From Vicinamibacteria bacterium (GTDB taxonomy: Bacteria > Acidobacteriota > Vicinamibacteria > Marinacidobacterales > Marinacidobacteraceae), in the NCBI GenBank assembly GCA_963668695.2, contig CAXXLQ010000004.1, positions 2,816,001 to 2,880,000 of the forward strand: 64,000 bases of DNA, written 5' to 3'. Position 1 is the stretch's first letter. Each line of letters begins with the position of its first letter. Positions 15,885 through 53,502 of the stretch are shown here, piece by piece. The position numbers and the translations under genes were made by a program. Under the pieces are notes generated by a model. It was not told where the DNA came from. It ran no database searches and worked only from the letters and a program-made list of their open reading frames with translations.

Positions 15885-16111
15885 CGAGCGACGCCGGCTG
15901 CGGAGACCAGCGATCTTGGACGGCTGTGCGCGCTCTACCCGGGCTGACGACGGGAGTTTCGCCCCGCTCTAGCGGAGCGATGCCGGTCTGAAGGCCGGCG
16001 TTCCTGGACGGTTGCGTGCGCTCTACGCGGGGTGGCGACGGGAGTTTCGCCCCGCTCTAGCGGGGCGATGCTGGCCAGTTCTCCCGGTGGGGGCCTGAAG
16101 ACCGGCGCTCC
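15885..16111. repeat. REP-like tandem repeat (~88-bp unit, ~2.3 copies) with palindromes
   Basis: Units start at 15917 and 16005. They contain CGCCCCGCTCTAGCGG(A/G)GCG and GCCGGTCTGAAGGCCGGCG hairpins. The second unit carries the 19-nt motif at 16075-16093. Confidence 0.75.
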
Positions 16112-16118
16112 ACGCTCC

Positions 16119-17294
16119 TTACGCCGCCATCTTCTGGGCGGAGTCGAGGACCGTCGCGATCCTGGTAGCGGCGCGCTGCATCTCGTCCATCGTGCCGAGG
16201 GAGATGCGGCAGCGAGTCCACAACGGCGGGAACGGCCGCCCGACGCGAACGCCCTCGGCGGCGCAGGCCGCCTGGAAATGCTCGATCGGCATCCCGACAT
16301 CCACGAAGATGAAGTTCGTCTGTGCGTCCGTAGAGCTGAGGCCCCGGTCGGCGAAGAACTTGATGATGAAGTCCCGCGCCTCGGCGTTCCGCTTCTTCTC
16401 GTTCGGGAGGTAGTCGGGATCCGCCTTGTCGCGCTGGAGGGCGGCGTTCGCGGCGACCAGCGCCGGCGTGCTGACCGAGTTGCCCATGTGGAACTCGCCC
16501 AGTTCGGCGATGGTGTCTTCGTGGGCGATCGCATAGCCGACCCGGAGACCGGCCATCCCGTAGGCCTTCGAGAAGGTGCGCGCCACGATGAGCCGCGGGT
16601 TCTCGATCGCCGTCGGGATCATGGTCTCATGACCCGGCGTGGTCACGTAGTCGATGTAGGCCTCGTCGGCCAGGATGCGGAGGTTTTTCTCCACGTCGAG
16701 GGCCCGCATCAGGAAGTCCTTGCTCTGGGCTGGATCGACGAGCGTAGCGACCGGATTGTTGGGGTTGCAGTAGAAGAGCATCCCGCTGCCCTTGCAGGCG
16801 TGGAGCGTCTGGTCCAGATCCATCTTGAACTCGGACGTCAGCGGTACCTCCTTCGTCCGGTAGCCCATCAGGTTCGCGTATCCGAAGCACTCTTCGTAGG
16901 TCGGCAGCGACCCGACGAGCGCCTTCTCCTTGCTTGCGTACTGATGAGTGCAGTCCACCAGGATCTGGGTGGAGCCGGCGCCCACGAGGACGTTTTGCGG
17001 CTTCACTCCCCACTTCTCGGCGATGGCCTCCTGCAGGGGGCCGAGGAACCGGAACGGGTAGCGTCCGGCGATCACGCCTTCGGGTCCGATGACCGAATCG
17101 ATGGCGTCCATGACCGCCTCACCGGGGCCGAGTGAGTTCTCGTTGTTGGCGAGGTTGATCGCCTCTTCGGGGGCGATTCCCATCTCGGCGGCGAAGGCGA
17201 GCTGCTCGCGGAGGCGCGAGCGGACGACAGTCGCGGCATAGAGGCCAGCGGCGCCGGCGGAGGCATGACTCAGGAAACTGCGGCGGGAGAGCAT
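16119..17294 (-). CDS. HisC-like PLP-dependent aminotransferase (class I/II) with Tat signal
   Basis: MLSRRSFL start with GGAGG RBS; NENS.G, CNPNNP, DEAY and RTFSKAYGMAGLRVGY motifs. Confidence 0.85.
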   Translation of the reverse strand: MLSRRSFLSHASAGAAGLYAATVVRSRLREQLAFAAEMGIAPEEAINLANNENSLGPGEAVMDAIDSVIGPEGVIAGRYPFRFLGPLQEAIAEKWGVKPQNVLVGAGSTQILVDCTHQYASKEKALVGSLPTYEECFGYANLMGYRTKEVPLTSEFKMDLDQTLHACKGSGMLFYCNPNNPVATLVDPAQSKDFLMRALDVEKNLRILADEAYIDYVTTPGHETMIPTAIENPRLIVARTFSKAYGMAGLRVGYAIAHEDTIAELGEFHMGNSVSTPALVAANAALQRDKADPDYLPNEKKRNAEARDFIIKFFADRGLSSTDAQTNFIFVDVGMPIEHFQAACAAEGVRVGRPFPPLWTRCRISLGTMDEMQRAATRIATVLDSAQKMAA

Positions 17295-17353
17295 GGGGTG
17301 GCTACCTCCTCGTAGCGGGGGGTTCTGCGGTTCTGGACGATGAGTGATTCGGC

Positions 17354-18550
17354 CTACTGCTGCTGGTTGTCGGCGGTGGCGAGCCCGAGCACTTCCGCGA
17401 AGACCGCGGTTGCGCGCTGCATCTCTTCGAGGGTGCCGATCGAGATGCGGGCGTGGGAGTTTTCGTAGGGAGGGAAGTCCCGGCCCACCATGATTCCCTG
17501 CTTTGCGCAGGCCTCGCGGAACTCCTTTGCCGAACGACCGATGTTCACGAAGATGAAGTTCGTCTCGCTGGGCACCGGGTCGAGGCCGTTGCTCGAGAAG
17601 AAGTCGAGGGTGAACTTGCGCGCCGCCTCGTTCCGCTTCACTTCCCTCTTGATGTAGGCCGGGTCTTCCAGCGATCCCATCGCGGCCGCGATGGAAAGGA
17701 TCGAAGTCCCGAAAGTGAGACGCAACGGGGCCAGCTTCGCGATCGTGCCGGCCTGCCCGAAGGAATAGCCAATCCGGAGACCCGCCATTCCGTACGCCTT
17801 CGAGAAGGTCCGGCCCACGAAGACGTCGCGGTACTCCATCGCGAGCGGGGCGCCGGTGTCGAAGGCGGGGTGGGTGACGTAGTCGTAGTAGGCCTCGTCG
17901 AGAAGAATCGCGGTGTAAGGCGATTCCTTCTTGACGAACTTCACGAAGTCCGTGATGTCCGCCAGCGAGTGGACCGTGCCGGTGGGGTTGTTCGGGTTGC
18001 AGAGGAAAACGAGTCCGGCGCCGATTGAGGCTCCGGCCATCTTGTCGAGGTCGAGTCCAAGATCTCCCATCATCGGGATGGACTTGACCGGTGCACCGAC
18101 GTACTTGGCGGTCCGCACCGGGTTCTCGTAGGAGCACTCCCCGGTGACGAGCGCCCGACCCGGGCCGGTGTACACCCGAACGGCGTTCCGGAGGATCTCC
18201 GAGGAACCCGGAGCGAGGACCACATGCTCGGCGCCCCCGCCGTACATCTCTCCGATCCGCTTGCGGAGGTCGCTGCCACTGATCCGCGCGTTCATCGGAT
18301 AGCGCATGATCGAGCCGTACTCGCCCCGGAGCGCCGCCACCGCGGCGGGTCCCGGACCGAGCGGGTTCTCGTTGCTGCTGATCCGGACCTCGTCGGCCTC
18401 GGGTGGCGGCACGAAGACCGGCGCCCCGCGAAAGCCGTTCTCGGCTTCCCAGGCTTCACGGCCGCGGGCGGAGATCGCGTGAAGAGCGGCCGGGCTGGTT
18501 GCGGTTCCACCGCCTGCCAAACTAAGGAAACTGCGACGGTTGGTCTTCAT
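17354..18550 (-). CDS. HisC-like PLP-dependent aminotransferase (class I/II) with Tat signal, paralog 2
   Basis: MKTNRRSFL; SNENPLG, CNPNNPTG, DEAY and RTFSKAYGMAGLRIGY motifs. Confidence 0.85.
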   Translation of the reverse strand: MKTNRRSFLSLAGGGTATSPAALHAISARGREAWEAENGFRGAPVFVPPPEADEVRISSNENPLGPGPAAVAALRGEYGSIMRYPMNARISGSDLRKRIGEMYGGGAEHVVLAPGSSEILRNAVRVYTGPGRALVTGECSYENPVRTAKYVGAPVKSIPMMGDLGLDLDKMAGASIGAGLVFLCNPNNPTGTVHSLADITDFVKFVKKESPYTAILLDEAYYDYVTHPAFDTGAPLAMEYRDVFVGRTFSKAYGMAGLRIGYSFGQAGTIAKLAPLRLTFGTSILSIAAAMGSLEDPAYIKREVKRNEAARKFTLDFFSSNGLDPVPSETNFIFVNIGRSAKEFREACAKQGIMVGRDFPPYENSHARISIGTLEEMQRATAVFAEVLGLATADNQQQ

Positions 18551-18700
18551 CGGATCTCTCCCTGATCGAGTATGTGCTCCGCGGTCGAGAGCTTCTTCTG
18601 AGTCTGATGTCGGATAGGCGAATTCATTCGGGTTGCTATTTTGGGTGGACGGAGCCTACCGGTTGGCCGAGATACGGCGCAACCCCCACGAGGGTTCCGC

Positions 18701-19216
18701 TCAATGCACCATGAGGTCGGCGACGAGCGCGGTTTCTCCCCACTGCATCTTGAGGGTGCCGTTCATTCCGTCGGCCATCAGCGTGATGGTGAACATCTCG
18801 GCGGAACTGTCGGCCTTTTCCACCTTGAGGGGAGCACTGAACAGGTCCTTTTCCGGATTGTGGGCAAGGCCCGACTGCCCGGTCTCGCCGTTCACCAGCA
18901 GGTCCCAACCGTCCTCGGTCTTCTGCGCGAAGAGGCTGTAGGCGCCGGCGGACACCATCTGGCTGCCGATCATCAGGTCACCCTCGGTGGTGATCGTGGT
19001 GGCGTCTTCGGAGCCGAGGCGCCACACCATTCCGGGCATCGCCTGGCCCAGCATGTCGCGGCCGTTCAGGCTGGGACGGCCGTAGTCCACGGTGACCGCC
19101 TTGCCGTCAAAGCTGGCTTCCACCTTGGCGCGCGGGTTGTGCGCCAGAGCGATCGCGGCCAGACCGACGGACAGAGCGACCGCCGAGATCAACATTTTCT
19201 TCGGGAAGTGGATCAT
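18701..19216 (-). CDS. DUF2911-like secreted protein
   Basis: Signal peptide; VDYGRPS..GR, WRLG..ATT, GAYSLF and E.FTI...W motifs. Confidence 0.7.
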   Translation of the reverse strand: MIHFPKKMLISAVALSVGLAAIALAHNPRAKVEASFDGKAVTVDYGRPSLNGRDMLGQAMPGMVWRLGSEDATTITTEGDLMIGSQMVSAGAYSLFAQKTEDGWDLLVNGETGQSGLAHNPEKDLFSAPLKVEKADSSAEMFTITLMADGMNGTLKMQWGETALVADLMVH

Positions 19217-19364
19217 GGGTTGGTCCTCCGGCCGCGATTCTAACGGGCCGCCCGGTGGCCACGGCAATTCCGTTGCGGCGCTTGAGGACGGCGCGGTAGG
19301 CTCACCCAGAAGAGGCCCGGTCGTTTGCGCACGCGCGCGGGCGGGGCTCGAGGATCGATCTCCC

Positions 19365-21536
19365 ATGCAGCCTGCTCCTCATCATCGGCGTCCCTTCCGA
19401 GCCCTGGTGGCCGGTTTGGCCCTGCTGGCACCTTGCCTATTGGCACCTTCCCTGACGGGAGCAGACGAGCGCGTTGACCGCCTGCCCGAGGAACATCGGG
19501 TGTGGCTGGAAGAAGAGGTGGTCTACCTCATCACCGAGGTAGAGCGGGAAGTGTTCCTTGAGCTCCAAGGGTTCGAGGAGCGCGAACACTTCATCGAGGC
19601 GTTCTGGCTGCGGCGGGATCCCGTTCCGGCGACGAAGGAAAACGAGTTCAAGATCGAGCACTACGAGCGTCTCGACTACGCCAACCGCTTCCTGGGCAGG
19701 GACGCCCCCCGGCCGGGATGGCAGACCGACCGGGGCCGCCACTGGATCATCCTCGGCAAGCCGCGCCAGCGCGAGCAGTTCGACGGGCGCAACGAGGTGG
19801 TGAGCATCGATCTCTGGACCTACCAGGGAGACACCAGAATGGGCCTGCCGCCCCGGTTCAATTTGCTGTTCTTCAAGAAGGAAGATATCGGCGAATACGA
19901 GCTGTACCACCCGTGGGGCGATGGCCCGGACGCGCTTCTTCGTCGCGGCGAGCTGCTCCGAAACCGCCAGCATGCGGTCGTCGACATCCTCGAGGTGGTG
20001 TCCATGGATCTGGCCCGCGCGAGTCTGGTGGTGGATCTGACCGACCCGCACGCCGATTTTCTTTCGGCCACCAACACCATCGCCCCTCGGCTCGACACCG
20101 TGCGGCCCTCGATGAGCGTGGACAAGAACTTCGCGGACATCCTCGAATCCCCCTACAAGATCGTGGATCTGGAGGAAATCGAGGGGTATCTCCGATATGG
20201 GGATCGGGTGACCTCCGAATACTCGTTCCGCTTCGTCACGAGCGAGGCCGATTTCCGGGTACTGGTGGGACCCAGGAACACGCCCTTCATCCACTACAGC
20301 GTGAAATTCGCCCCGGAGGATTTCTCGCTTGAGTTCGACGATCGTGAGTACGTCTACCAGACGACACTCGAAGTCGAACTCGAGCTGCGCACGCTCGATG
20401 GACGCCTGGTCGCGGTGCAGCGGAACGAGCCCGAAATCCGGCTCACCGAAAGCCAGCATCGCGAGGCGGCCCCCCGTCCCTTTGCCTACCGCGACAACCT
20501 ACCGGTGATCCCCGGCGAGTACGAGGTGAGCGTCGTCGTGCGCAACCGCGCCAGCCAGCAGTACACGGTGGTGAGCGCTGAGGTTCAGGTTCCCGCGACC
20601 GGTGGTCCGGGCGCTGTTGGCCTCGCCGACCTGGTGCTCGCGTACCGCGCCGATCTGGGAGCGGATTTCGCAAGCGATCTGCGATTCGGAACCTTCCAGT
20701 TCGGTCCCGCGGTGCTCGAGCCGTCGGTGGGCGGAGTGTTCGCGGCCAGCGACACCCTGACCGTTGCGGTCCAGACGTTGAACGCCAAGGCCGACCAGAG
20801 TCTGCGGCTCCGCATCCTGACCGATGAGGGCGGTGGTCCCGACACGCGCGCGGCGGGTGAACTGCTGGTGGAGCGGGTGGTGGCGCCGGGAAGTGTGGCC
20901 GATCCGCCTATCGAGGAGTTTCCGCTGGCGGGGATCGGGGCCGGCCGCTATCTGGTGGTGGCGGAGCTTCTGGACAGCGCCGGGACAACAGTCGCGTCGC
21001 GGGAAGCCCCCATTCTGGTTTCCCCGCGCGCCACGGTGGATCGTCCCGGTTTTATTGTGCGGCGGTCTTTCGCCACCCACGTGCCGGGACTGCTTGCCCT
21101 TGCGCTCGGCGAGCAGTTCATGGCCCACGGCCGCGTTTCGGAAGCTACCGTCGCTTTCCGGGAGGCGGCCGCGAATCCGAACTTGCCGATGGCGCGCTGG
21201 AAGCTGGCGAGCGCGTTGCTGTTTGCGCGGAAAGCGGACGAAGCGCTGGATCTTCTGCTTCCTATCGAGACGGAATACCCGAATGAGATCGACGTGGCTG
21301 AAGGAGTGGGTTTCGCTTACTACATTCGACAGGAGTGCGGAGAAGCAGTCCCGCGTCTGGAACACGCTCTCACCCTGCGCACGGCGGATTCCTCGCTACT
21401 GAACGCGCTTGGGGATTGTCACGAGCAACTCGGTGACGGGGAACGCGCGCGGGAAATGTTCGAACGTTCGCTGGAGTTGAATCCGGGCCAGCAGGGTGTT
21501 CGAGACCGCCTGGCCGGGCTCGGCGACGGTCGCTGA
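19365..21536 (+). CDS. GWxTD-domain protein with C-terminal TPR repeats
   Basis: WLEEEVVYLIT, FW..RDP, EHY.R..YAN, PGWQTDRG; TPR-like C-terminus; signal peptide. Confidence 0.85.
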   Translation: MQPAPHHRRPFRALVAGLALLAPCLLAPSLTGADERVDRLPEEHRVWLEEEVVYLITEVEREVFLELQGFEEREHFIEAFWLRRDPVPATKENEFKIEHYERLDYANRFLGRDAPRPGWQTDRGRHWIILGKPRQREQFDGRNEVVSIDLWTYQGDTRMGLPPRFNLLFFKKEDIGEYELYHPWGDGPDALLRRGELLRNRQHAVVDILEVVSMDLARASLVVDLTDPHADFLSATNTIAPRLDTVRPSMSVDKNFADILESPYKIVDLEEIEGYLRYGDRVTSEYSFRFVTSEADFRVLVGPRNTPFIHYSVKFAPEDFSLEFDDREYVYQTTLEVELELRTLDGRLVAVQRNEPEIRLTESQHREAAPRPFAYRDNLPVIPGEYEVSVVVRNRASQQYTVVSAEVQVPATGGPGAVGLADLVLAYRADLGADFASDLRFGTFQFGPAVLEPSVGGVFAASDTLTVAVQTLNAKADQSLRLRILTDEGGGPDTRAAGELLVERVVAPGSVADPPIEEFPLAGIGAGRYLVVAELLDSAGTTVASREAPILVSPRATVDRPGFIVRRSFATHVPGLLALALGEQFMAHGRVSEATVAFREAAANPNLPMARWKLASALLFARKADEALDLLLPIETEYPNEIDVAEGVGFAYYIRQECGEAVPRLEHALTLRTADSSLLNALGDCHEQLGDGERAREMFERSLELNPGQQGVRDRLAGLGDGR

Positions 21537-22506
21537 GCCCGCCGCCGCCGTACCTCGGGGTTTTCCTGAGGTGATTGGCAGGGCGTTCGCCTTACGCCCC
21601 GAGGGCGCGTGGTTCCAGCGGAATCGTCCACTCGCTCCGTTCACGACGCTCGGGCTCGGGGGACCAGCCGACTGGTTCGTGCAGGTCGGCGGCGAGGAGC
21701 AGCTTCTTGCAGCTCTCTCGGCCGCCAGCAACGCCGGGCTCCCCGTCACCCTTCTTGGCGGCGGATCCAACGTGCTGGTGTCTGACGAGGGAGTCCGTGG
21801 GGTGGTGGTCCGGGTGCGCGGGGGCTCTGCGCACCACCTTGACGGCCGAACCGTCCGGGCATTCGCCGGAATGACAGTGAACGGGCTTGTCCGCTGGAGC
21901 ATCCAGCGAGGCCTCGCGGGTCTCGAGGCGTGGGCGGGCACCCCGGGAACGGTGGGAGGGGCAATCCATGGGAACGCTCACTTCGGCGGCCGGAACGTGA
22001 GCGAGTTGGTGACGGGGCTGCGTGTCGTCGGTGACCAGGGGGATGTGGAGACGCTCCCTGTGGAAGCCGCGGAGTTCGGGCCCGGCGGCGCCGCTCTCGC
22101 CCCGAGGGGGCGCATCGTCTTGTCCGCCGACTTCGGAGTTCAACCCGGGGATCCGGCCGTCCTTCGCCGGCGGGCTCGAGCATCCCTGGCGTTTCGGAAG
22201 CGCACCCAACCCCTCGGGCTCCCGAGCGCCGGCTGCGCCTTCCGGAACCCGGACCCCAGCCGGGTCTCCCTGCCTCCCGATGTCCCCTGCGCCGCCGGCG
22301 CTCTGCTGGACCGGACCGGGATGAAAGGGGTTGCGGTCGGCGGGGCCCGGGTGTCCGAGGTCCACGCCAATTTCCTGACTGCCGGACCCGGCGCGACGGC
22401 GGCGGACGTGCATCATTTGCTCGGGGTGTGCCGGGAGGCGGTGTCGGCGGCCTTCGGGGTCGAGCTGGTGCCCGAGCTCGTTTTCCTGGGAGAGTTTTCG
22501 TCTTGA
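21496..22506 (+). CDS. murB: UDP-N-acetylenolpyruvoylglucosamine reductase (start uncertain)
   Basis: TT.GLGGPA, LGGGSNVLVSD, GLE..GTPGTVGGA..GNA, QP..PSAGCAFRNP, HANF. Confidence 0.9.
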   Translation: MFETAWPGSATVAEPAAAVPRGFPEVIGRAFALRPEGAWFQRNRPLAPFTTLGLGGPADWFVQVGGEEQLLAALSAASNAGLPVTLLGGGSNVLVSDEGVRGVVVRVRGGSAHHLDGRTVRAFAGMTVNGLVRWSIQRGLAGLEAWAGTPGTVGGAIHGNAHFGGRNVSELVTGLRVVGDQGDVETLPVEAAEFGPGGAALAPRGRIVLSADFGVQPGDPAVLRRRARASLAFRKRTQPLGLPSAGCAFRNPDPSRVSLPPDVPCAAGALLDRTGMKGVAVGGARVSEVHANFLTAGPGATAADVHHLLGVCREAVSAAFGVELVPELVFLGEFSS

Positions 22507-23846
22507 CTCGAGACGCTCCCGCTCCGACCACTTTGATCGTCGAGGGTGGCGCTCGACTGGAAGGCCGGGTGAAGGTCGAGGGCAACAAGAACGCCGCGCT
22601 ACCGCTCCTCGCCGCCTGCCTTCTCACCGACGAGTGGTGTGAACTCCGGAACATGCCGGAGATTCGCGACGCGGCCACGATGGCCGAAGTCCTGCAGGGG
22701 CTCGGCGCCGAAGTGGAGAGAGGGGAAGGGGGTTCCGTGCGGATCCGGGCCGCAGACATCCGGAGCGACGAACCGGACCCCGCGGGGGTGGGCCGGCTGC
22801 GCGGATCGGTGCTGCTTGCGGCGCCGCTGCTCGCGCGTCGCGGGAGGGTGCAGATGGGGGAGCCGGGAGGAGACTTCGCCGGGCGTCGAAGCCTCGACGT
22901 GCACCTGGCGGCCCTTCGGGCCATGGGGGTCAGGGAGGTCGAGGGGCCCGGCCGGGTGCTCGAGGCTCCTGATGGCCTGCAGCCCGCCTCCATCTATCTC
23001 GAGGAGGCGTCGGTCACGGGAACGGAAACGGCGCTGCTGGCCGCGGCGGGAGCCGAGGGCGTCTCGGAAATCCGTCACGCGGCCTGTGAACCGCATGTCG
23101 TCGAGCTGTGCGGGTTCCTGGAGAAGATGGGAATCGGCATCGAAGGGGCCGGTACTCCGACCCTGCGGGTGTTCGGCCGGGAGCGCCCGGCCGGTGCTGC
23201 GTGGACGCTCGCCGGGGACTTCGTGGAGGCCGGAAGTTGGGCGGCGGCCGCCGCCCTGACCGGCGGAACGGTGGAAATCCGGGGAGCGCGCGCCAGGGAT
23301 CTCGAGCCGATCGTGGCGGTGCTCAGCCGTCTCGGAGTAGCGATCGAACTCGAGGAGGATCGGCTGGTTGTCGAGCCCTCCCGGCTGCGCGCCGCGCGGC
23401 GCATCACCACCGCTCCGTGGCCGGGATTCCCGAGCGACATGGTGAGCCTCACGACGGTGTTGGCGACGGCCGCCGAAGGCGCCACCCTGGTTCACGACTG
23501 GATGTATGAACTCCGTCTCTTCTCCCTCGAACAGTTGATCGGGATGGGAGCGGACATGTTCCTCTGCGATCCACATCGGGTGATCGTCACCGGGCCTACC
23601 AAGCTTCGGGGGAGAGACCTCGACGCCCGCGACATCCGATCGGGAATGGCGCTAATCGCGGCGGCGCTTGCCGCGTCCGGCGAGAGCCGCATCACCCCGC
23701 TCGAAACCGTGCAGCGGGGTTATTCCGACCTGCCGGAGAAACTTCGCTCCCTGGGGGCAAGGGTGGACATTCTAGTAGCTGGTGGACAAAGTGGCGTGAG
23801 CGCCGAGGCCGGCCAGTCTCCCGGTGGGGGCGAGGCGCCCGGCTGA
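22503..23846 (+). CDS. murA: UDP-N-acetylglucosamine 1-carboxyvinyltransferase; C-terminal ~24 aa come from an inserted repeat
   Basis: GNKNAALP, LRGS, PGGD..G.R..D.H, SVTGTE, PWPGFPSD, DIRSG, RGY motifs; TTG start overlaps the murB stop. Confidence 0.92.
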   Translation: MTRDAPAPTTLIVEGGARLEGRVKVEGNKNAALPLLAACLLTDEWCELRNMPEIRDAATMAEVLQGLGAEVERGEGGSVRIRAADIRSDEPDPAGVGRLRGSVLLAAPLLARRGRVQMGEPGGDFAGRRSLDVHLAALRAMGVREVEGPGRVLEAPDGLQPASIYLEEASVTGTETALLAAAGAEGVSEIRHAACEPHVVELCGFLEKMGIGIEGAGTPTLRVFGRERPAGAAWTLAGDFVEAGSWAAAAALTGGTVEIRGARARDLEPIVAVLSRLGVAIELEEDRLVVEPSRLRAARRITTAPWPGFPSDMVSLTTVLATAAEGATLVHDWMYELRLFSLEQLIGMGADMFLCDPHRVIVTGPTKLRGRDLDARDIRSGMALIAAALAASGESRITPLETVQRGYSDLPEKLRSLGARVDILVAGGQSGVSAEAGQSPGGGEAPG

Positions 23847-24263
23847 CAAGGCGCGTGAGGGAGGAGCCCCCACCGGGAGAACTGGCCCGGGCGTATTCCG
23901 ACCGAAACCCAACGATGAGCGGCGCGAAGCGACGCGGTGAACAGCCGGTGGTGGAACCCACGTGAGCGCCGAGGCCGGCGAGGCACCCGGCTGACAAGGC
24001 GCGTGAGAAAGGAATACCGAGTGTATTTCGACCGAAACGCAACGATGAGCGGCGCGAAGCGACGCGGTTCAGCCGGGATGGATCGCCGGCCGAACGCCGC
24101 GTGGGTTTCATCACCGGTTGTTTGGCCGGGATGGATCGCCGGCCGAGCCCCCACCGGGAGAACTGGGCCGCGTGGGTTTCATCACCGGTTGTTTGGCCGG
24201 GATGGATCGCCGGCCGAGCCCCCACCGGGAGAACTGGGCCGCGTGACTTTGTTCACCGGCTGC
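23775..24263 (-). mobile_element. MITE-like element cluster with internal tandem duplications, inserted in the murA 3' end
   Basis: Ends GTAGCTGGTGG...CACCGGCTGC; core matches copies at 26451, 40023 and 48346 in reverse orientation. Confidence 0.8.
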
Positions 24264-24271
24264 TTGGCGCC

Positions 24272-26395: not shown

Positions 26396-26450
26396 GTCGG
26401 GCAGACCGAAACGCCGGTCTGGGTGCTCCATTCTGGCGGCTCCGGGACTA

Positions 26451-26651
26451 ACAGCCTGTCGACAAGGTCACGCGGCCCGGTTCTCCCGGTGGGGGCTCGG
26501 CTGGCGATGCATCCCGGCTGAACGGCGACGCTTTCGCGTCGCTCATCGTTGCGTTTCGCTCGAAATACACCAGGTATTTCCTCCCTCACGCGCCTTGTCA
26601 GCCGGGCGCCTCGCCAGCCTCGGCGCTCACGTCACTTTATCGACAGACTGT
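26451..26651 (+). mobile_element. MITE-like element copy
   Basis: TIR ACAGCCTGTCGACAA...TTATCGACAGACTGT; shared core CATCGTTGCGTTTCG.TCGAAATACACC...GCGCCTTGTCAGCCGGG. Confidence 0.8.
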
Positions 26652-26699
26652 TGGCGCGAAGGACGGTTTCCAAGCCGGCTTCCCCGGCGAGGTCATTCC

Positions 26700-26727
26700 T
26701 TGACAGAGGATCGGGGCGCGCTAATCT
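26700..26727 (+). promoter_or_regulatory. Sigma70-type promoter
   Basis: TTGACA (26700-26705), 16-bp spacer, TAATCT (26722-26727) in a GC-rich background. Confidence 0.6.
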
Positions 26728-26736
26728 GCCGTTACC

Positions 26737-26922
26737 CAGTCGGTTTCCCGCAACCGGCGTTACGGGTGCGCTCGTCCCGTGCGCGGCTCCAAGGGTCCGG
26801 GTTTCCGGGCCCACCTCCATCCGTCTCCTTCCTTCCTCAAAGGAGCCAGAACGGGACACCCCTTGGGGGATGTCCGGGAGCCGCGTCGGGCAGACAACTG
26901 TATCCGGTTGCCGGATCGGCTG
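26737..26922 (+). ncRNA. Candidate structured ncRNA or leader RNA (~185 nt), family unassigned
   Basis: Nested long-range complementarity (GCAACCGG/CCGGTTGC, CGCGGCTCC/GGAGCCGCG) encloses two hairpins; starts ~10 nt after the -10 box. Confidence 0.4.
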
Positions 26923-27077
26923 CCGCTCGGTCGGTAGTGCGCGCTGGCCGGGGAGTCCCGCCGGAAGAACTAGCCCGGATCGCCTGCCTCGCTCCCGTCT
27001 TTCCAGAGCGTCGAGGCCACCCCGAACCCGCTACCATCGGGACTCCGGGATTTCGCTCTGTGACTACCGTTCCGAAA

Positions 27078-27113
27078 CCATCAGTTTGCCCATCAGTTTG
27101 CCCATCGGTTTGC
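27078..27113 (+). repeat. Three 12-bp direct repeats CCATC(A/G)GTTTGC
   Basis: Directly visible, 55 bp upstream of the S9 peptidase start. Confidence 0.8.
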
Positions 27114-27168
27114 CTGGTTGAGACACGGAGCGGGGCGGTGACGTCCCCGGCAGCCGGAGGCCGCTCAG

Positions 27169-39969: not shown

Positions 39970-40022
39970 CGGTCGAGGGAGGAGCTGGCCGGGACCGCAT
40001 CGTGATGGGCGGTCGGCCCTTA

Positions 40023-40203
40023 GCAGCCTGTGGACAAAGTCTCGCGGCGTTCGAGCGGCGATCCATCCCGGCTGAAACACTCCGCTTCGCGTCGTTCATC
40101 GTTGCGCTTCGGTCGAAATACACCCGGTATTCCTCCCTCGCGCGCCTTGTCAGCCGGGCGCCTCACCGCTCTCGGCGCTCACGACACTTTATCCACAGGC
40201 TAC
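40023..40203 (+). mobile_element. MITE-like element, clean 181-bp copy flanked by TA
   Basis: TA|GCAGCCTGTGGACAAAGT...ACTTTATCCACAGGCTAC|TA; lacks the 19-nt motif. Confidence 0.85.
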
Positions 40204-40216
40204 TAGGGAGCGTCGG

Positions 40217-42713: not shown

Positions 42714-42767
42714 CGCCAGTCCCCCGGGGGACTGGCGGCGGCGCGCTCCCTCAACGGGTGGCTTCGA

Positions 42768-45587: not shown

Positions 45588-45977
45588 GGGACCCTCCTGT
45601 TTGGTGGGGGATTGGCCGAGTTGGGGTCGAGTGCGAAGGCAGGTCCAGCGGACCTGCCCAAGTCGGGATAGCGAGCGATGGTCCCGGGGGGCGGGCCGCG
45701 CTCGAAGGTGAGAGTTTAGGGCCGGCGTCCTGCCGGTCGTCCATTCTGGTGGATTCGGAGAACCGGAGATGCGACCGCTGGCGGGAGGTCCCGACCGGGC
45801 AAAAAGCGCGGAACCCCCCGGATTTGAACGCATGCTGGCTCCATTTCCTCCATCGGCCTTCCAAGCCGAAAAGGCGTTATACCACATGCTGTACTAGGAC
45901 TTCGGGCAAGATTTGTACCGTGGTTCGGCGGCCGGGTCGGCGACCGCTCGCGTGGGCCGTCCACCGGTCACCAAGAC

Positions 45978-47153: not shown

Positions 47154-47224
47154 CGGTTAGGCGCCGATTCTGTCTCATACGGACGACCGCCCCGCGAAAC
47201 CTGTGGTTCGCGCTTGCTGTCTGG

Positions 47225-48298
47225 ATGTTTTCGGCGGCGCTGGGTGGTGGGCAGGAGGAACCGTCACCCGATCCGGCCCTCGCGGAAGCGGCCGCCCTGA
47301 TCGAGGCCGGCGAACGGGACGAGGCGGCGCGCATCCTGCACGACTTCCTGGTCGCCCGGCCCTGGGACGCTGGGGCGTTTCACCAAGTCGGCGCGATGTG
47401 GCTGGTCGCCGGGGAACCTGAACTCGCGCGCCCGCCTCTGGAGGGCGCGGTGGCGCGCGCCCCCGACTTCGTAGATGGCCGCCTGGCGCTCGGACAGGCC
47501 CTCGGACAGCTTGGGAGGGTGGAAGAAGCCCTCAGCCAGTTGGAGGCCGCCTCCACGACGGACCCCGGCCGCTTCGAAGCGCCGTACCTCGCGGCCGCGG
47601 TGCTCGACGGGGCGGGACGTCTCTCCGAAGCGGTTGACAAGGCCGCCCGGGCGGTGGAACTCGCGCCGCGCGACGCCGGGATGCGCCGGTTCCTGGGGCG
47701 GCTGCTGCTGCGCATCGAGCATTGGCCGGAGGCGCAGGCGGAACTCGAGCGGGCGCTACAGCTCGGCTACCGTGAGGATCCGGCGATCTTCGCCGACCTG
47801 GGCGCCGCGCTGCTGGGGCAGGAGCGCCTCCCGGCGGCGCGGGCCGCCTACGAGCGGCATCTGGAGTTGGCCCCGGACGATGCTGAGACGCTCCTGCAAC
47901 TGGGATATCTCGACTGGCGCACCAATGAATACGAGGCTTCCGAAGAGTTCCTCGAGCGCGCGATCGCCCTCGACCCGAATCTCCGGCGAGCCCACCACTT
48001 CCTGGGCCTGACCGCGCTACGTCGCCAGGAGTTCGACCGGGCCGAGGGGGCCTTCCGCCGCGCGCTGGAACAGGGCGAAGATTTCCCGGAGGCTTGGTTG
48101 AATCTCGGGAAGATCGCGCTGCGCCGCGGAGACGCGGAGGATGCGGCGCGCCTGCTGGAGACCGCGATCCGCTACGCGCCGGACTATGCGGACGCCTACT
48201 ACCAACTCTCCTTCGCCCGCCGGCGGCTTGGGGATCCGGAGGGGGCGGCAGCCGCCCTCGAACGGTTCGAGGAACTCAGGCGGGAGCAGGACGGGTAA
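47225..48298 (+). CDS. TPR-repeat protein (start uncertain, may be further upstream)
   Basis: About 9 TPR units (ALGQALGQLG, AHHFLG, AWLNLG, AYYQL). Confidence 0.8.
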   Translation: MFSAALGGGQEEPSPDPALAEAAALIEAGERDEAARILHDFLVARPWDAGAFHQVGAMWLVAGEPELARPPLEGAVARAPDFVDGRLALGQALGQLGRVEEALSQLEAASTTDPGRFEAPYLAAAVLDGAGRLSEAVDKAARAVELAPRDAGMRRFLGRLLLRIEHWPEAQAELERALQLGYREDPAIFADLGAALLGQERLPAARAAYERHLELAPDDAETLLQLGYLDWRTNEYEASEEFLERAIALDPNLRRAHHFLGLTALRRQEFDRAEGAFRRALEQGEDFPEAWLNLGKIALRRGDAEDAARLLETAIRYAPDYADAYYQLSFARRRLGDPEGAAAALERFEELRREQDG

Positions 48299-48345
48299 TT
48301 GAAGCGACCGCGGCGGGACGGCTTCTCCGGAACGGCAGAGAGTTA

Positions 48346-48580
48346 ACAGCCTGTGGCAAAACCCACACGGCGTTCGACCGGCGATCCATCCCGGCTGAAC
48401 CGCGTCGCTGCGCGCCGCTCATCGTTGCGTTTCGGTCGAAATACACCCGGGCCAGTTCTCCCGGTGGGGGCTCCTCCCTCACGCGCCTTGTCAGCCGGGC
48501 CCCCACCGGGAGAACTGGCCCCACCGGGAGAACTGGGCCTCGCCGGTCTCGGCGCTCACGTGGGTTTCACCACAGGCTGC
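48346..48580 (+). mobile_element. MITE-like element flanked by TA, carrying three copies of the short motif
   Basis: TA|ACAGCCTGTGG...CCACAGGCTGC|TA; motif at 48452, 48500 and 48519. Confidence 0.85.
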
Positions 48581-48589
48581 TAACGGCAG

Positions 48590-48967
48590 ATGCGGTCGAG
48601 ATTCTTTGGGAGATCCAGCTCCGATTCGGACCGCTTCCGAAGTTCGCCAGCAGGGGATCTGGCCAGGCGCAGCGGGACCACGCGGGACCACGCGGGACGG
48701 CGGGCACGGCAGGAACCATGGTGGAAGGACTGGCTGGGGATCGGAACAAAGCGCGAGTGGCTGTGGGTTGGCTTGGTCGTGGTTGTCGGGATCGGCTACA
48801 CCTACAAACAGGACGGGCTCGCGGGAGCGGGATGGGCGGCTTTCGTGACGGCCGGAGCCCTGTTGGTGGGTGTGTGGATGAAGCGGCAGGAAAAAGCCGA
48901 GGAGAATCGAAAACCCGTCTTGCGCCTCCGTGATTCGGAGCGCGACGAATACGGTAGGAAGCGCTGA
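48590..48967 (+). CDS. Small hypothetical membrane protein (2 TM)
   Basis: Two hydrophobic segments (WLWVGLVVVVGIGY; WAAFVTAGALLVGVW); start uncertain. Confidence 0.5.
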   Translation: MRSRFFGRSSSDSDRFRSSPAGDLARRSGTTRDHAGRRARQEPWWKDWLGIGTKREWLWVGLVVVVGIGYTYKQDGLAGAGWAAFVTAGALLVGVWMKRQEKAEENRKPVLRLRDSERDEYGRKR

Positions 48968-49127
48968 GCGCGGGGTTTGCTCCCGGGATTTTCGCTGCGC
49001 ATCGGGGCGCAGCATCGCGGCGGCGTTGCGCGTCGCGCGCGGATCTTGTGGTTCGCCCGGCGCCTCCGGGGGCGCGTACTATGGGGCTGCCGCCCAAACT
49101 CAGGAGGAAATCCCCAGGAGGAAATCC

Positions 49128-50132
49128 ATGATCCGTTCGAAACGAATCCTCATCGCCACACTCCTGTTCTTCGGGGTGGGCGCAGTGCCGGCTCTGGCCC
49201 AGTCCACCCATCCGCCGGTCGCCACCTTCTCCATCGTCGCCCACGACCCCGACACCGGCGAGATGGGGGTCGCGGTCCAGTCGAAGTACTTCTCGGTGGG
49301 GCATGTGGTGCCGTGGGGCGAAGCCGGAGTCGGGGTGGTCGCCACCCAGGCGAACGTGAACGCCGGCTATGGGCTCCAGGGACTCGATCTGCTCCGGCAG
49401 GGACTCAGCGCGGAAGAGGTCAAGGATCGGCTGCTCGCCGAGGACACCTTCCCCGGCGTGGAGGGCCGGCAGTTCGCCGTGGTGGACGCGAACGGTGGGA
49501 TTGCCGTCCACACCGGGCCTACCGCGAATTTCTGGGCGGGTCACCGCGTGGGTGAGCACTACTCCGCCCAGGGCAACATCCTGACCGGGCCGGAGGTGGT
49601 CGAGGCGATGGGTGACGCCTTCGAGGCCGCCGAGGGAACGCTCGCCGAAAAGATGCAGGCGGCGATGGTCGCCGGGCAGGAGGCCGGGGGAGACAGCCGC
49701 GGCCGCCAGTCGTCGGCGATGCTGGTGGTCGGCAAGGGGATGGGCCGGAACATCAACAACGACGTGGTGGCGAGGCTCCAGGTCGAGGACCATCCGATGC
49801 CCATCCAGGAACTGGGGCGGGTGCTCAACATCAACCTCGCCATTACCGCGATGTCCCGCAGCCGGGAAAGGAACGAGGCCGGAGACGGCGCGGCGGCGCT
49901 TGCCGCCGCCGAAAGAGCCACCGAACTCTGGCCCGACGCTTCCGACACCTGGCTGAACCTTGGTCTGCTCAACTACTCGCTCGGCAATCGCGACCGGGCG
50001 CTGGAGGTCTTCGGGAAGGCCGCATCGATGAACGAGCTCTTCCGTGGCCAGTTGGAGTCCACCCTGGGCTGGACCGGCCATCCCGGGCTCGATGACGAGT
50101 TCCTGGCGGCGCTTTTCCCGGGGGGCTCCTGA
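49128..50132 (+). CDS. DUF1028 (Ntn-hydrolase-like) protein with C-terminal TPR
   Basis: TFSIVA.DP..G.MGVAVQS, ATQA, QGNIL, GGDSRGRQS; signal peptide; GGAGG RBS. Confidence 0.85.
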   Translation: MIRSKRILIATLLFFGVGAVPALAQSTHPPVATFSIVAHDPDTGEMGVAVQSKYFSVGHVVPWGEAGVGVVATQANVNAGYGLQGLDLLRQGLSAEEVKDRLLAEDTFPGVEGRQFAVVDANGGIAVHTGPTANFWAGHRVGEHYSAQGNILTGPEVVEAMGDAFEAAEGTLAEKMQAAMVAGQEAGGDSRGRQSSAMLVVGKGMGRNINNDVVARLQVEDHPMPIQELGRVLNINLAITAMSRSRERNEAGDGAAALAAAERATELWPDASDTWLNLGLLNYSLGNRDRALEVFGKAASMNELFRGQLESTLGWTGHPGLDDEFLAALFPGGS

Positions 50133-50174
50133 GAGGTCCCTCGGGCACGCGCGGGTCTTTGAGCCTCGGGTAGC

Positions 50175-51122
50175 GTGATCCGTTCCCTCGCGCTCGCCCT
50201 GGCGATCGCGTCGCTCGGCGCGGCGGAGGCGCAGGGTCCGGACGCCCAGGATCCGGACGCTCTGCTCCGCGCCGGCCAGCGGTGGCTCGACGCCGGCAAC
50301 TCCGGCGCCGCGGTGGAGTCGTTCCGCCGGCTCGTGCAGGCGGTTCCGGACTCCCGCTCCCACTACTACCTGGGCGTCGCGCTCCTGCGGGATGATCGGC
50401 CCGGAGAGGCGGTGGATGCACTTCGGCGGGCGGAGTCGGTCGCCGAGGCACCCAATCCGGCGCTCGCGTTATCACTCGGGACGGCGCTCCTGCGAGGGGG
50501 AGCCTCCGAGGAGGCAGTGGTTGTCCTCGAAGCGGCTGCCGGGCATTTCCCGCGCGCCGCTCCCATTCTCATCCAGCTCGGTTACACCCATTACACGAGG
50601 CTCGAAGGCGAAATGGCCCGCGGCGTCCTGCTCCGGGCCCGCGAGATCGCCCCGGCGAATCCGCTCGCTCCCTTCTACCTAGGTCTCGCCGAGGCTGCAC
50701 TCGGTGAGCTGGAGCCGGCGGCCGAGGCCTTTCGCGAAGCGGTTCGTCTGGACCAGGGGAATCCCGAAGCCCGGGTAGCGCTCGGCCGGACTCTCTCCCA
50801 GTTGGGACGCCCGCAGGAAGCCCGCCAGGAATACGAGGCGGCGCTCCGAATAGCGCCCGGATCTCCGTCCGCGTTCGTGGGGCTCGGAATGCTCGAGCTT
50901 CAGCAAGGCCGCCCGGAAGCCGCGGCCGGTTCCTTCGAGGCGGCCCTCGAAGTGGCTCCCGGCCACCGTCAGGCGCTCTACAACTTCGCTGCCGCCCTGG
51001 CCCTGCTGGGGCGCGCGGACGAGGCCGCCGCGGTACGTCGCCGGTTCCGGGAGGCCGCCGCTTCGGGGGAGGACCCCGGCCGTTCGCTTTCGCGTACCAG
51101 ATCGAAGCCGCGTCCGCGCTGA
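50175..51122 (+). CDS. Secreted TPR-repeat protein
   Basis: Signal peptide; TPR units (HYYLG, FYLG, ARVALG, ALYN). Confidence 0.8.
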   Translation: MIRSLALALAIASLGAAEAQGPDAQDPDALLRAGQRWLDAGNSGAAVESFRRLVQAVPDSRSHYYLGVALLRDDRPGEAVDALRRAESVAEAPNPALALSLGTALLRGGASEEAVVVLEAAAGHFPRAAPILIQLGYTHYTRLEGEMARGVLLRAREIAPANPLAPFYLGLAEAALGELEPAAEAFREAVRLDQGNPEARVALGRTLSQLGRPQEARQEYEAALRIAPGSPSAFVGLGMLELQQGRPEAAAGSFEAALEVAPGHRQALYNFAAALALLGRADEAAAVRRRFREAAASGEDPGRSLSRTRSKPRPR

Positions 51123-53502
51123 TGGGAAACCCAGCAGCCGGTGCCGGAACCCAGGCGGCCCAGTTCTCCCGGTGGGGGCTCGCCCGGCGATGCATCCCGG
51201 CCAAACACCCGGTAGTGAAACCCACGCGGCCCAGTTCTCCCGGTGGGGGCTCGGCCGGCGATCCATCCCGGCCAAACAACCGGTGATGAAACCCACGCGG
51301 CCCAGTTCTCCCGGTGGGGGCTCGGCCGGCGATCCATCCCGGCTGACCGCGTCGCTGCGCGCCGCTCATCGTTGCGTTTCGGTCGAAATACACCAGGTAT
51401 TCCTCCCTAACGCGCCTTGTCAGCCGGGCGTCTCACCGGCCTCGGCGCTCACGCGGGTTCCACCACCGGCTGTTCACCGCGTCGCTGCGCGCCGCTCATC
51501 GTTGCGTATCGGTCGGAATACACCCGGGCCAGTTCTCCCGGTGGGGGCTCCTCCCTCACGCGCCTTGTCAGCCGGGCCCCCACCGGGAGAACTGGGCCTC
51601 ACCGGCCTCGGCGCTCACGTGGGTTCCACCACCGGCTGTTCACCACTCCGCTCCGCTTCGTTCTGTGTTGCGTTTCGGTCGAAATACACCCGGGCCAGTT
51701 TTCCCGGTGGGGGCTCCTTCCTCACGCGCCTTGTCAGCCGCGCGCCTCACCCCCACCGGGAGAACTGGCGGGCTCGGCGCTCACCCGGGTTCCACCACCG
51801 ACTGCCAGAGCTCGGGCTCGCGGTGTTGCTCGGTGCATCGCCGGCGGCGGGTGAGAACTTCGTCTTCGTGGACCGGACCGAGGCGGCTGGAATCCGCTTC
51901 CACCACGAGGACGGCGGCAGCGGCCGGCGTTACGTGATCGAGATTGTCGGCGCGGGTGTCGCGGTATTCGATTACGACGGCGACGGTTGGCCGGATCTTT
52001 TTTTCGTGAACGGGCACCCGCTGCCAGGTGATACGGGCGGGGGGACGGTCGGGAACCGTCTTTTTCGGAACCGGGGGGACGGGACCTTCCGGGACCGCAC
52101 CGAGGAAGCGGGACTGCTGGATGCGCCGGACGGCCTCCGCTACGGCATGGGGGCCGTCGCGGGTGACCTCGACGGCGACGGCGATCCGGACCTGCTCGTT
52201 ACGCATTTCGGCGAAGAACGGCTCTTCCGGAATCAGGGAGACGGCACCTTTCGCGAAGTCCCGGGCGCCGGCGGTGCGAGCGATGCCCGCTGGACGACCA
52301 GCGCCGCGCTCTTCGATCCCGACGGGGACGGGGATCTGGACGTCTACGCCGCGAATTACCTCGACTACGCGCTGGAACGGCACCGCGACTGCGTGAGTCC
52401 GGTCAAGGAAGTTCTCGCCTACTGCCACCCGCAGGAATACCCGGGAGCGGCCGATTCCTTCTTCGAGAACCTGGGGGACGGGACGTTCCGGGCGGTTCCC
52501 GTTCCCGGTTCGGAGGAAGGGAAGGGGTTGGGAGTGGTCATCACGGACCTCGGAGACGACGGTGCGCCGGACGTGCACGTCGCGAACGACACGACCCCGA
52601 ACTTCCTGTTCCGGACGGAGTCCGGGCCGGAGGGGGTCCGGTTTGTCGAGGACGGGCTCGCATCCGGCGTCGCGTACAACGAGGAGGGCCTCCCGGAAGC
52701 CGGGATGGGCAACGATTGGGGAGACGTGGACCGTGACGGGCGCATGGACCTCGTCGTCACGAACTTCGACTTCGAGACGAACACCCTTTACCGGAACCTC
52801 GGCGGCGGGCTCTTCCTGGACGCCACCGCGGCCTTCGGAATCGGAAGCGAGAGCCTCACCGAACTCGCCTTCGGGTGCGATCTCGCCGATTTCGACAATG
52901 ACGGCTGGCTGGACCTGGTGGTGGCAAACGGCCACATTCTCGACAACATCGCGAAAATCCAGTCGAACCTCCGTTTCGCCCAGCCTGGTCAGGTGTTCCG
53001 GAACAACCACGGCGTCCTGAGACGCAGCCGGGCCAGCGAGGGCGACTTCGCCCGGCCGCGGGTTGGACGGGCTCTTGCCAGTCTCGACTACGACCTCGAC
53101 GGGGATCTGGACCTCGTTCTCGCCAACAACCGGGGTCCGGCGGAGTTGCTCGAGAACCGGGGCGGGGACCAATCGGGGCGTTCGGTGGGCTTCTTGCTGG
53201 TCGGGACCAGCGGAAACCGGGACGGGATCGGAGCGCTCCTGAGCCTCGCGAGCGGCGACCTCGTGCAGCGCGAGGAGCGGCGGGCAGGGGCCAGCTACCT
53301 GGCTCAGCACGATCCCGTGATGTGGTTCGGTCTCGGCCAAGCGGCCAGCGCCAGCGACATCACGATTCGGTGGCGGTCCGGGCGGGAGGAGTTCCTCGGA
53401 TCCCTGCCGGCGGGGTGGGTCCACATCATCAAGGAGGGGTCCGGGCGCATCGGCGGCTCCGAGGTGGGCGCCCGGGGGGACTCGAACCGGGAGGCGCGAT
53501 GA
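51122..53502 (+). CDS. CRTAC1-family FG-GAP/ASPIC-UnbV protein, interrupted after codon 4 by the MITE cluster (possible pseudogene; in-frame GTG at 51823)
   Basis: Body from 51808 has FDYDGDG, GMG, EAGMG and SYLAQ..FGLG; removing 51134-51807 restores MGNPELGLAVLLGASPAAG. Confidence 0.75.
51134..51805 (+). mobile_element. Amplified MITE-like cluster (three 71-bp left-end units plus repeated cores) flanked by a CA duplication
   Basis: CA|GCAGCCGGTG...CACCGACTGC|CA; core repeated three times; seven short-motif copies. Confidence 0.85.

Follow-up and report, generated by a model that had tools for sequence, protein, structure and literature searches.

A 19-nt motif inserted many times into other repeats and into genes in an uncultured marine and sponge-associated family of Acidobacteriota

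We analysed a 64,000-nt stretch of the genome of a Vicinamibacteria bacterium (contig CAXXLQ010000004.1, positions 2,816,001 to 2,880,000 of the forward strand; hereafter the window), in which a very short motif, CCAGTTCTCCCGGTGGGGG, recurs inside larger repeats. The window contains 15 matches to this motif with at most two mismatches, 12 of them exact and 3 with one mismatch, against 0.00 matches by chance in 100 dinucleotide-preserving shuffles. An earlier note on the same letters had listed sixteen copies; fifteen were recovered where it had placed them, and the sixteenth, at 23813-23830, is an 18-nt version of the motif lacking one T, which recurs at the same kind of site (site D, below) elsewhere in the genome.

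The copy at 16075..16094 (plus strand) lies in a hairpin resembling repetitive extragenic palindromic (REP) sequences, here called REP-2, in which 20 nt have replaced one T of gctgg-T-ctgaagaccggc. Its tandem neighbour at 15982..15999, gccggtctgaaggccggc, is empty, so that this pair of hairpins, one filled and one empty, is found just as the earlier note had described it. The other copies occupy sites of a miniature inverted-repeat transposable element (MITE) of ~187 bp, the main host of the motif, which has the ends AGCCTGTGG.., is flanked by TA and folds into one long hairpin; its five recurrent insertion sites are called A to E here. The reference MITE at 40020..40206 (plus strand), again one long hairpin, has every motif site empty. 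Site A, read as cgcggc[GT]tcg at 40045, is filled at 51231 and elsewhere; site B, cacccgg[TAT]tcc at 40119, is filled at 48452; and site C, cagccggg^cgcctc, is filled at 51577 and carries a head-to-tail double copy at 48500-48536. These three pairs stand as the earlier note had drawn them. At site D its insertions at 23813 and 51750 are genuine, but the latter is a clean gain of 19 nt, not of 18 nt.

In the first half of the window, site D is filled at 23813..23830 (plus strand) and site B at 23867..23885 (minus strand, the host MITE being on the minus strand); site A is filled in two 71-bp tandem units, at 24148..24166 and 24219..24237 (both minus strand), and, by an A3G variant of the motif, at 26477..26495 (plus strand). 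Further along, the MITE at 48343..48583 (plus strand) has site B filled (48452..48470, plus strand) and site C filled twice, by two head-to-tail units with an 18-nt period (48500..48536, minus strand); both of these sites are unfilled in its orthologue from the sister species, G004. An array of MITE modules at 51135..51805 (plus strand), composed of three 71-bp left-end units and then three bodies, holds seven motif copies: three at site A in units 1 to 3 (51160..51178, 51231..51249 and 51302..51320, all plus strand), one at site B (51529..51547, plus strand), one at site C (51577..51595, minus strand), a second at site B with one mismatch (51695..51713, plus strand) and the clean 19-nt gain at site D (51750..51768, minus strand). 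In the G004 orthologue of this array three of the seven sites are empty, namely site A of unit 3 (GT), the first site B (..aggTATtcc) and site C, and the other four are filled. Over the two orthologous MITE loci, this comparison of alleles between relatives, which the earlier note had suggested, gave five motif sites that differ between G004 and the genome of the window, G000, and four that are shared; G001 and G008 lack both MITEs altogether.

The 71-bp unit, made up of the MITE left end and site A, is tandemly repeated at 24100-24240 and 51135-51345 of the window, and a 71-nt spacing between motif copies occurs 116 times genome-wide, so the MITE family also grows via tandem duplication of sub-modules. 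The earlier note had rightly taken some copies to be passive: those in the 71-bp units, and generally those amplified with their host. A contig of one sponge-metagenome run, X1, joins 40020 directly to 40206 (one usable bridge among 4 of 18 listed runs), and the lack of the reference MITE there points to recent MITE mobility. Contigs from the public runs are short and broken at repeats and are uninformative on fill states.

A genome-wide count, also suggested by the earlier note, yielded 1613 copies with at most two mismatches in G000 (4.10 Mb in four contigs, 67.5% G+C, 91.7% complete), of which 1123 are exact, 403 have one mismatch and 87 have two. The two strands are used equally (816 versus 797 copies), at a density of about one copy per 2.5 kb, and true coding copies are rare, with about one case among the 1613. 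Beyond G-S-[19 nt]-C the copies show only background information content, and the core, written as CCAGTTCTCCCGGTGGGGG(C), is a fixed block of 19-21 nt; it is among the smallest mobile-looking DNA elements known. Spacings between copies are highly regular (18, 48, 71, 98, 25 and 55 nt, the 48-nt spacing, for example between sites B and C, being found in 148 cases), because most copies occupy fixed places in one repeat. They gave no sign of a long element bounded by the motif, and half-motifs standing apart from complete copies are either decayed ones or matches by chance, and not split ends of a larger element. Inverted motif pairs form perfect stems of 20-23 bp, with sites B and C together giving a 23-bp stem. 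No Rfam family was found within the window, and no exact motif match was found in viral contigs.

Parts of the G000 assembly are duplicated at 99.1-99.6% identity: the whole of contig C1 (144 kb) matches C4:310-411 kb, and the two C4 ends match each other (C4:3.78-3.86 Mb and C4:10-89 kb). Rather than a plasmid, the duplicated segments probably represent strain haplotigs or a circular overlap left unresolved; they fit the 9.3% 'contamination' figure of this assembly and offer an internal comparison between nearly identical strains. A truncated motif copy at C1:136845 belongs to this duplication.

On the main contig, the five MITE sites hold about 1276 of the 1548 copies (333 at site A, 307 at B, 371 at C, 203 at D and 62 at E). 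A further 114 copies lie in REP-2, the 18-nt palindromic hairpin GCCGGTCTTCAGACCGGC, 27 in a second hairpin, REP-3 (GCCGACC-TC-GGTCGGC), and 131 in other contexts. The MITE core itself has ~650 matches in G000 according to a BLAST depth profile; no full-length insertion sequence (IS) with MITE ends was found in this genome. Grouping the copies by their 20+20-nt flanks gave 104 clusters, 68 of them singletons. At least eight sites are recurrent in G000, five in the MITE and the others in REP-like palindromic hairpins of 16-18 nt, and relatives carry further insertion sites.

Filled and empty sites were compared genome-wide by a k-mer anchor search, and the filled minus empty anchor distance was always 18 or 19 nt. 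With replaced bases in brackets and all MITE sites in motif orientation, the empty sites read gcggc [GT] tcg for site A (20 nt inserted), cccgg [TAT] tcc for site B (21 nt), gaggc [G] cccgg for site C (19 nt), agcgg [T] gagg for site D (20 nt) and aagcg [AC] gcgg for site E (20 nt); the REP-2 site reads gccgg [T] cttcag, with a mirror-image arm on the opposite strand (20 nt), and the REP-3 site cctcgg [T] cggc (20 nt). Overall, a block of 19-21 nt displaces one to three bases (T, GT, CG, AC, TAT or GAC), with a net gain of 18 or 19 nt, and brings with it neither inverted ends nor donor flank. The description given by the earlier note for the window, with both orientations, no terminal inverted repeats (TIRs), no target duplication and 0-3 bases replaced, holds throughout the genome.

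The block sits directly 3' of a G-rich triplet. When each of the 104 context clusters is represented by a single copy, the most frequent upstream triplets are CGG (35), GGC (23) and GCG (11), and G occupies position -2 in 77 clusters; position -1 holds G in 74 and C in 28. Since these bases are seen in empty sites too, they belong to the target and not to the motif. Microhomology of the form GG...C is present at both junctions. Among site-B copies, those with a cagg flank are filled in 2 cases and empty in 50, and those with ccgg or tcgg are filled in more than half; this depletion fits a CGG requirement, and co-conversion would give an equal pattern. The consensus REP-2 hairpin folds (z = -3.2 for the consensus string, which is not the window copy), its empty form is GCCGG-T-CTTCAGACCGGC, and it is the replaced T that makes the palindrome perfect. 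A target at palindrome centres was rejected, the mean stem across the junction being 1.88 against 2.10 in shuffled partners. Copying between mirror sites across the MITE hairpin (quasi-palindrome correction) was likewise rejected, with odds ratios of 1.7 for A-D and 2.1 for B-C against 4.6 for A-B.

The concentration of most copies at five fixed sites of one MITE family would also be expected if the motif were an ancestral module of a mosaic repeat, comparable to the bacterial interspersed mosaic elements (BIMEs), in which deletion empties sites and recombination or gene conversion produces the patchwork. Deletions do occur between the haplotigs, and gene conversion could flip fill states either way. 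The comparison with relatives nevertheless makes such an origin very improbable. Site B is empty in all 97 matches of G010, a closed genome of the same genus, and likewise in G014 (31 empty, 0 filled) and G019 (9 empty, 0 filled); both states coexist in G004 (235 empty, 196 filled) and G000 (262 empty, 259 filled). The bases held by empty sites, TAT, GT or T, cannot be regenerated by deletion of the motif, which indicates insertion and not loss. Where a loss did take place, it looks different: two haplotig segments with 97% identity differ by a clean 19-nt indel between GGCC microhomologies, which leaves 'ggCctt', a form found 12 times among the empty copies. This form looks like a deletion scar that can be distinguished from the ancestral 'ggTctt'.

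Insertions into single-copy DNA speak against an ancestral module as well, as do those into REP hairpins unrelated to the MITE. In G010, a coaBC-like gene has an in-frame copy of the exact 19-mer, which falls in a variable loop (TSSPGG) and adds 18 nt net; this insertion is missing from all 13 other aligned genomes of the genus. In G000, an RND-transporter-like gene carries the motif in frame (PHRENW, +18 nt) in both haplotig copies, as does G001; G004, G008, G009 and G014 lack exactly those 18 nt. Both gene identities come from a reading of the translations. A third copy in unique DNA is intergenic, common to four species and missing from two, and in none of the three unique-DNA insertions was donor flank carried along. 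Hairpin-rich DNA, the target proposed by the earlier note, is therefore usual but not required, given the two insertions in single-copy coding sequence.

Linkage within the MITE family leads to the same result. The 396 complete MITE copies show 40 distinct fill-state combinations, with all four gametes present for every site pair. In a set of 333 MITE copies with 39 single-nucleotide polymorphisms (SNPs; minor allele frequency, MAF, >=0.1), the mean r2 between fill state and SNPs was 0.035, 0.057 and 0.023 at distances of 1-5, 6-10 and 11-20 nt, respectively, compared with 0.198, 0.154 and 0.081 between SNPs in the matching bins; fill state and SNPs within 1-20 nt of each other show almost no linkage, contrary to what an ancestral module would predict. 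Variable sites in MITE copies have length classes that are motif multiples only, and no other segment of the MITE behaves in this way. Our results demonstrate that the motif is genuinely insertional and not an ancestral module, and that insertion occurred many separate times, at least twice in frame in single-copy genes. The core claim of the earlier note, a micro-element that inserts into pre-existing DNA and mostly into other repeats, is thus borne out by the filled and empty sites, the all-empty relatives and the two genic gains, and its own counter-hypothesis, an ancestral part emptied by deletion, is contradicted by the coding insertions and the all-empty relatives.

An alignment of G000 with G004 (366,660 nt, 87.3% identity) contained 26 shared and 18 ambiguous motif units, 22 units private to G000 (15 in clean gaps of motif size) and 8 private to G004 (6 of them clean). 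About 45% of the motif units in shared aligned host sequence differ between the two species, which we read as a per-site turnover a few times faster than single-base substitution and not as hyperactivity. Between the haplotig pairs (~180 kb, 99% identical), the motif-related differences are a site C with two copies versus one, a 19-nt indel in REP-2 and a 15-nt internal deletion. Site-C copy number shifts in 18-nt steps, and motif losses occur by microhomology deletion. Tandem arrays are confined to site C (140 doubles, two triples, one fourfold and one fivefold array), and since they occur at one site only, they are read as slippage and not as a signature of the insertion step. The double copy had been taken in the earlier note as fitting iterative addition, a proposal that is not supported, given this confinement and the slippage-like difference of two versus one between haplotigs. 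Simple tandem slippage, for its part, covers site C only and leaves the other sites unexplained.

The motif was found in 22 of the 61 genomes searched (including G000), all of one family, with zero copies in the other searched families of the order. Copy number per motif-bearing genome ranges from 7 to 1526 at no more than one mismatch, and this whole range occurs within one genus. Genuinely low counts were seen in the closed genomes G010 (13), G014 (78) and G009 (114); low counts in fragmented metagenome-assembled genomes (MAGs) may reflect assembly loss. Every genus with the motif also has the MITE, and the five closed genomes of the family that lack the motif lack the MITE too. Scanned for exact matches, species-representative genomes gave at least 95 stretches, and among the 80 loci listed nearly all are MAGs labelled Acidobacteria, Vicinamibacteria or 'Candidatus Marinacidobacterium'. 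Two exceptions examined are a contig labelled Gammaproteobacteria, which has the motif in the usual REP context, and an Acidimicrobiaceae MAG, in which the match is a chance in-frame 19-mer in an acyl-CoA dehydrogenase-like gene. Runs holding the window region are mostly sponge metagenomes, and a literature search on 'Marinacidobacterium' found nothing.

This distribution bears on the suspicion that so short and uniform a sequence, the only point in favour of such an origin, is an adapter, a barcode or assembler noise. We discount this explanation entirely. Independently made assemblies of other species have the same copies at orthologous sites, the motif is seen in short-read and long-read MAGs of several projects, the region is present in runs of 7 studies, and the genic copies are in frame.

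The sequence of the motif is far more constant than that of its hosts. Among the itemised filled inserts at site B, 253 of 259 are the exact 19-mer, 39 of 156 host MITE positions are polymorphic at MAF >=0.1, and the exact 19-mer is kept across four genera. Several genera have a T6C variant at numerous unrelated sites, a variant with complementary changes at both ends was found in both REP-2 and REP-3 contexts, and genus g4 has its own dialect, CCGGTTCTCCCGGTAGGGG, plus extra sites. The sharing of variants among contexts suggests that existing copies are the source of new ones, or that there are several templates. In G025, which belongs to g4, inverted motif pairs lie 34 nt apart, combining site A with a new site, gatg[CAT]ccc. 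The arms of these pairs differ and give G.T pairs on one strand by manual pairing, a hint of strand-specific structure.

That the 19-mer stays exact from genus to genus on diverging hosts could also mean that it is a functional site, bound by a nucleoid, recombination or uptake protein or serving as an RNA or DNA hairpin arm, and that it was spread by selection on its hosts. The even density on both strands, the perfect stems of inverted pairs and the G.T pairing of the g4 arms on one strand would all suit such a role. A range of 7 to 1526 copies within one genus is hard to square with a needed site, however; the motif arises as an indel and never by point mutation, is nearly absent from genes, and has yielded no partner protein. 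We consider selection for function improbable as the cause of the pattern; it leaves the insertion step unexplained and would be at best a complementary reading.

Taken together, these findings suggest that the motif is probably a non-autonomous insertional 'nano-element' of one uncultured marine and sponge-associated Acidobacteriota family, copied in by a trans-acting activity. In this scheme, an existing copy or a master template would be copied in with the donor retained, and the trans-acting activity would read the motif and nick or gap the target next to SGG. Filled copies then multiply passively as their host repeats amplify or duplicate in tandem, and very short-tract conversion between paralogues may aid the turnover of fill states in the MITE family. 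An activity that reads the motif itself is favoured by the constancy of the motif ends, by the absence of donor flank and by the lack of any comparable MITE segment, and the replaced bases with junction variation of ~1 nt would fit a gap-and-fill or template-switch step. The dedicated activity itself is a step that we infer.

Searches for this activity included the two enzyme classes that the earlier note had named first. No reverse transcriptase (RT; RVT_1) candidate was found in G000, and Y1_Tnp (PF01797; RAYT/HUH) gave no match there; the control genomes gave matches in both searches. RT- or HUH-mediated writing, as the earlier note had suggested, thus finds no backing in G000. The best TnpB match in G000 fell below the cut-off, and the single GIY-YIG match lies in a 664-aa frame. 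No replication-strand bias was detected, with all classes at p > 0.1 except site C (p = 0.009, its tandem copies being uncorrected), which argues against an IS200/IS605-like single-strand route; an apparent bias in G018 was a listing artefact, and direct tests show none. The inserting activity would accordingly not be an RT, Y1-HUH or TnpB as judged by Pfam models, and it would have no preference for the leading or lagging strand. In G010, with its low copy number, the genes that lie between closely spaced motif pairs appear ordinary, judging by open reading frame lengths and first residues only.

The earlier note had also suggested looking for a source copy in an ncRNA next to an RT, RAYT/HUH or IS110 gene. 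The one IS110 element of G000, in a REP-3-type hairpin, is not at the motif site but 7 nt away from it, the family is missing from the motif-bearing closed genomes G019 and G025, and IS110 was rejected as inserter. This element (G000:C4:482000-484200) has a 428-437-aa frame and is also present in G004, with identical flanks in both species (gccgaccggagg on one side of the IS and gtccggcgttcc on the other), a REP-targeted insertion typical of this IS family. G000 has 1 copy of it, and G004, G008 and G014 have 10-11.

Several results weigh against insertion by a trans-acting activity. Neither an enzyme nor a source copy was found for the motif in G000, a genome that is 91.7% complete and may therefore miss the gene, and we know of no transposase that handles anything as short as twenty bases. 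The motif alone has no fold (z = +0.6), and on neither strand does its 22-nt unit fold better than shuffled sequence. In ~180 kb of 99%-identical haplotig pairs there are zero new insertions, only losses and copy-number changes. Gene conversion from filled paralogues may be the immediate route for MITE sites, and the ~1-nt junction variation and the replaced bases would suit repair or template switching just as well as transposition.

The last point leads to an explanation without dedicated machinery, in which microhomology-mediated template switching during replication or repair copies the abundant motif into stalled forks or gaps next to GG/GC, the motif winning through its abundance and its location in hairpin-forming repeats. 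Replacement of one to three target bases, junctions that vary by ~1 nt, the GG...C microhomology at both junctions, the absence of RT, HUH and TnpB from the G000 results and of strand bias, and the GGCC-microhomology loss and the 15-nt internal deletion between haplotigs are all consistent with it. Yet donor flanks are never co-transferred, though donors have at least 8 different flanks, and the length classes of the MITE remain motif multiples only, a behaviour that no other segment shares. Two coding targets lie outside repeats, and the motif is kept from genus to genus even as its hosts diverge. We therefore regard template switching alone as unlikely, although less so than selection for a functional site. 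For a copied-in nano-element, a stronger version would be that a new activity, not recognisable as RT, HUH, DDE or TnpB, writes a 19-nt word next to SGG and replaces 1-3 bases. This version is possible but doubtful, and we put it forward tentatively; if true, it would amount to a minimal 'tag-writing' form of DNA mobility and would also explain the small dispersed repeats (SDRs) of cyanobacteria.

Those repeats had been named as the precedent in the earlier note, and we judge them the right comparison. Elhai and colleagues reportedly described in 2008 the families SDR1-8 of Nostoc punctiforme and its relatives (especially SDR4-6), of ~21-27 nt and in hundreds of copies. They are said to be nested in other repeats, to occur in filled and empty versions and to be near-absent from some close relatives. 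By these features, the motif would work like the cyanobacterial SDRs, which appear to be its closest precedent. Both are units of ~20 nt in hundreds of copies (here slightly shorter, 19-21 nt, and in 1613 copies), both are nested in other repeats with filled/empty differences between close relatives, both are too small to encode anything, and both are patchily distributed, here with 7 to 1526 copies within a genus and zero in the other searched families. The present motif differs in its host, an acidobacterium with 67.5% G+C, in being neither a palindrome nor foldable on its own, in following a definable target rule (placement 3' of CGG/GGC and replacement of 1-3 bases) and in its documented in-frame insertions into single-copy genes. 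A literature search on SDR4/SDR5 returned nothing relevant; the small dispersed repeats of Nostoc punctiforme (Elhai et al. 2008, Genome Res 18:1484) are cited and briefly described in passages of PMC3116915 and PMC2884548.

Other systems share fewer features. REP sequences and their inverted doublets (REPINs) are, according to parts of the paper by Bertels & Rainey 2011 (PMC3116915), moved by REP-associated tyrosine transposases (RAYTs; Y1-HUH). As described there in part, they resemble the motif as short intergenic repeats of hundreds to thousands of copies, with hairpin-forming inverted doublets and lineage-specific bursts. G000 has no RAYT/Y1 gene, in contrast, and the motif unit is not a hairpin; it enters other repeats and genes at SGG, unlike the spread of REPIN doublets as far as that account goes. 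The BIMEs of E. coli are mosaics of palindromic units with short extra motifs. They are similar in being short intergenic modules in variable combinations (here 40 fill-state combinations), but one module is here demonstrably added to pre-existing elements and unique genes, and we know of no BIME motif that is. Elements of the IS200/IS605 type insert as single strands 3' of a 3-4-nt word, in fixed orientation and with no target duplication. The motif likewise lies directly 3' of a short word, is oriented and makes no target duplication, but here there is no TnpA, no TnpB over the cut-off and no end hairpin, no replication-strand bias is seen, and target bases are replaced.

Unlike IS-derived MITEs, the motif has neither TIRs nor target-site duplication, and bases are replaced; unlike RT-templated additions (retrons, diversity-generating retroelements or telomerase-like systems), it occurs in a genome, G000, with no RVT_1. 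The uptake sequences of other bacteria (DNA uptake sequences and uptake signal sequences, DUS/USS) are short words enriched in genes and spacers that arise by point substitution, whereas the motif arises as an 18/19-nt indel with about one true coding copy in 1613. Excerpts of Chenal et al. 2025 (PMC11893778) describe Ssn (GIY-YIG) nucleases with NTS/SRM hairpin repeats, the SRM being ~30 nt. The likeness, to the extent that these excerpts cover it, is a short, very abundant and oriented repeat expected to have a protein partner; the motif differs in not being a hairpin, and the GIY-YIG frame of G000, with 664 aa, is not a small gene like those described for Ssn in these excerpts.

To our knowledge, the only published account of very small mobile repeats so far is the one from cyanobacteria in 2008. 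The clade studied here offers a cleaner system, with a single 19-nt word, ~1600 copies and a readable target rule. It also offers several closed genomes of one genus, a MITE with nothing but empty sites in one closed genome and half of them filled in relatives, and dated in-frame insertions into ordinary genes, which opens a phylogenetic-profile search for the responsible gene and a biochemical test with defined oligonucleotides. We therefore read the motif as an unusually tractable case of a rare and poorly understood kind. It matters for annotation too, as it adds six codons to proteins, builds perfect 20-23-bp intergenic hairpins and breaks short-read assemblies.

Three minor observations concern the surroundings. 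A tRNA origin of the motif was dismissed as too weak, the likeness to the 3' end of tRNA-Glu being 11 of 12; in tRNA-Glu(ttc) of G000 (C4:2086916-2086989), the 3' end ctcccgttgggg matches 11 of 12 bases of the motif 3' half, which is probably compositional. At G000 C4:3267790-3267900, a 13-nt tandem repeat (cagcggacccaat..) stands beside a conserved motif copy, and its copy number varies among four species; two others lack it. Finally, positions 1-10000 of the window have a composition unusual for G000 (G+C ~71%, GC skew near +0.30) and are covered by long open frames on the plus strand, of 956, 585, 689 and 1396 aa.

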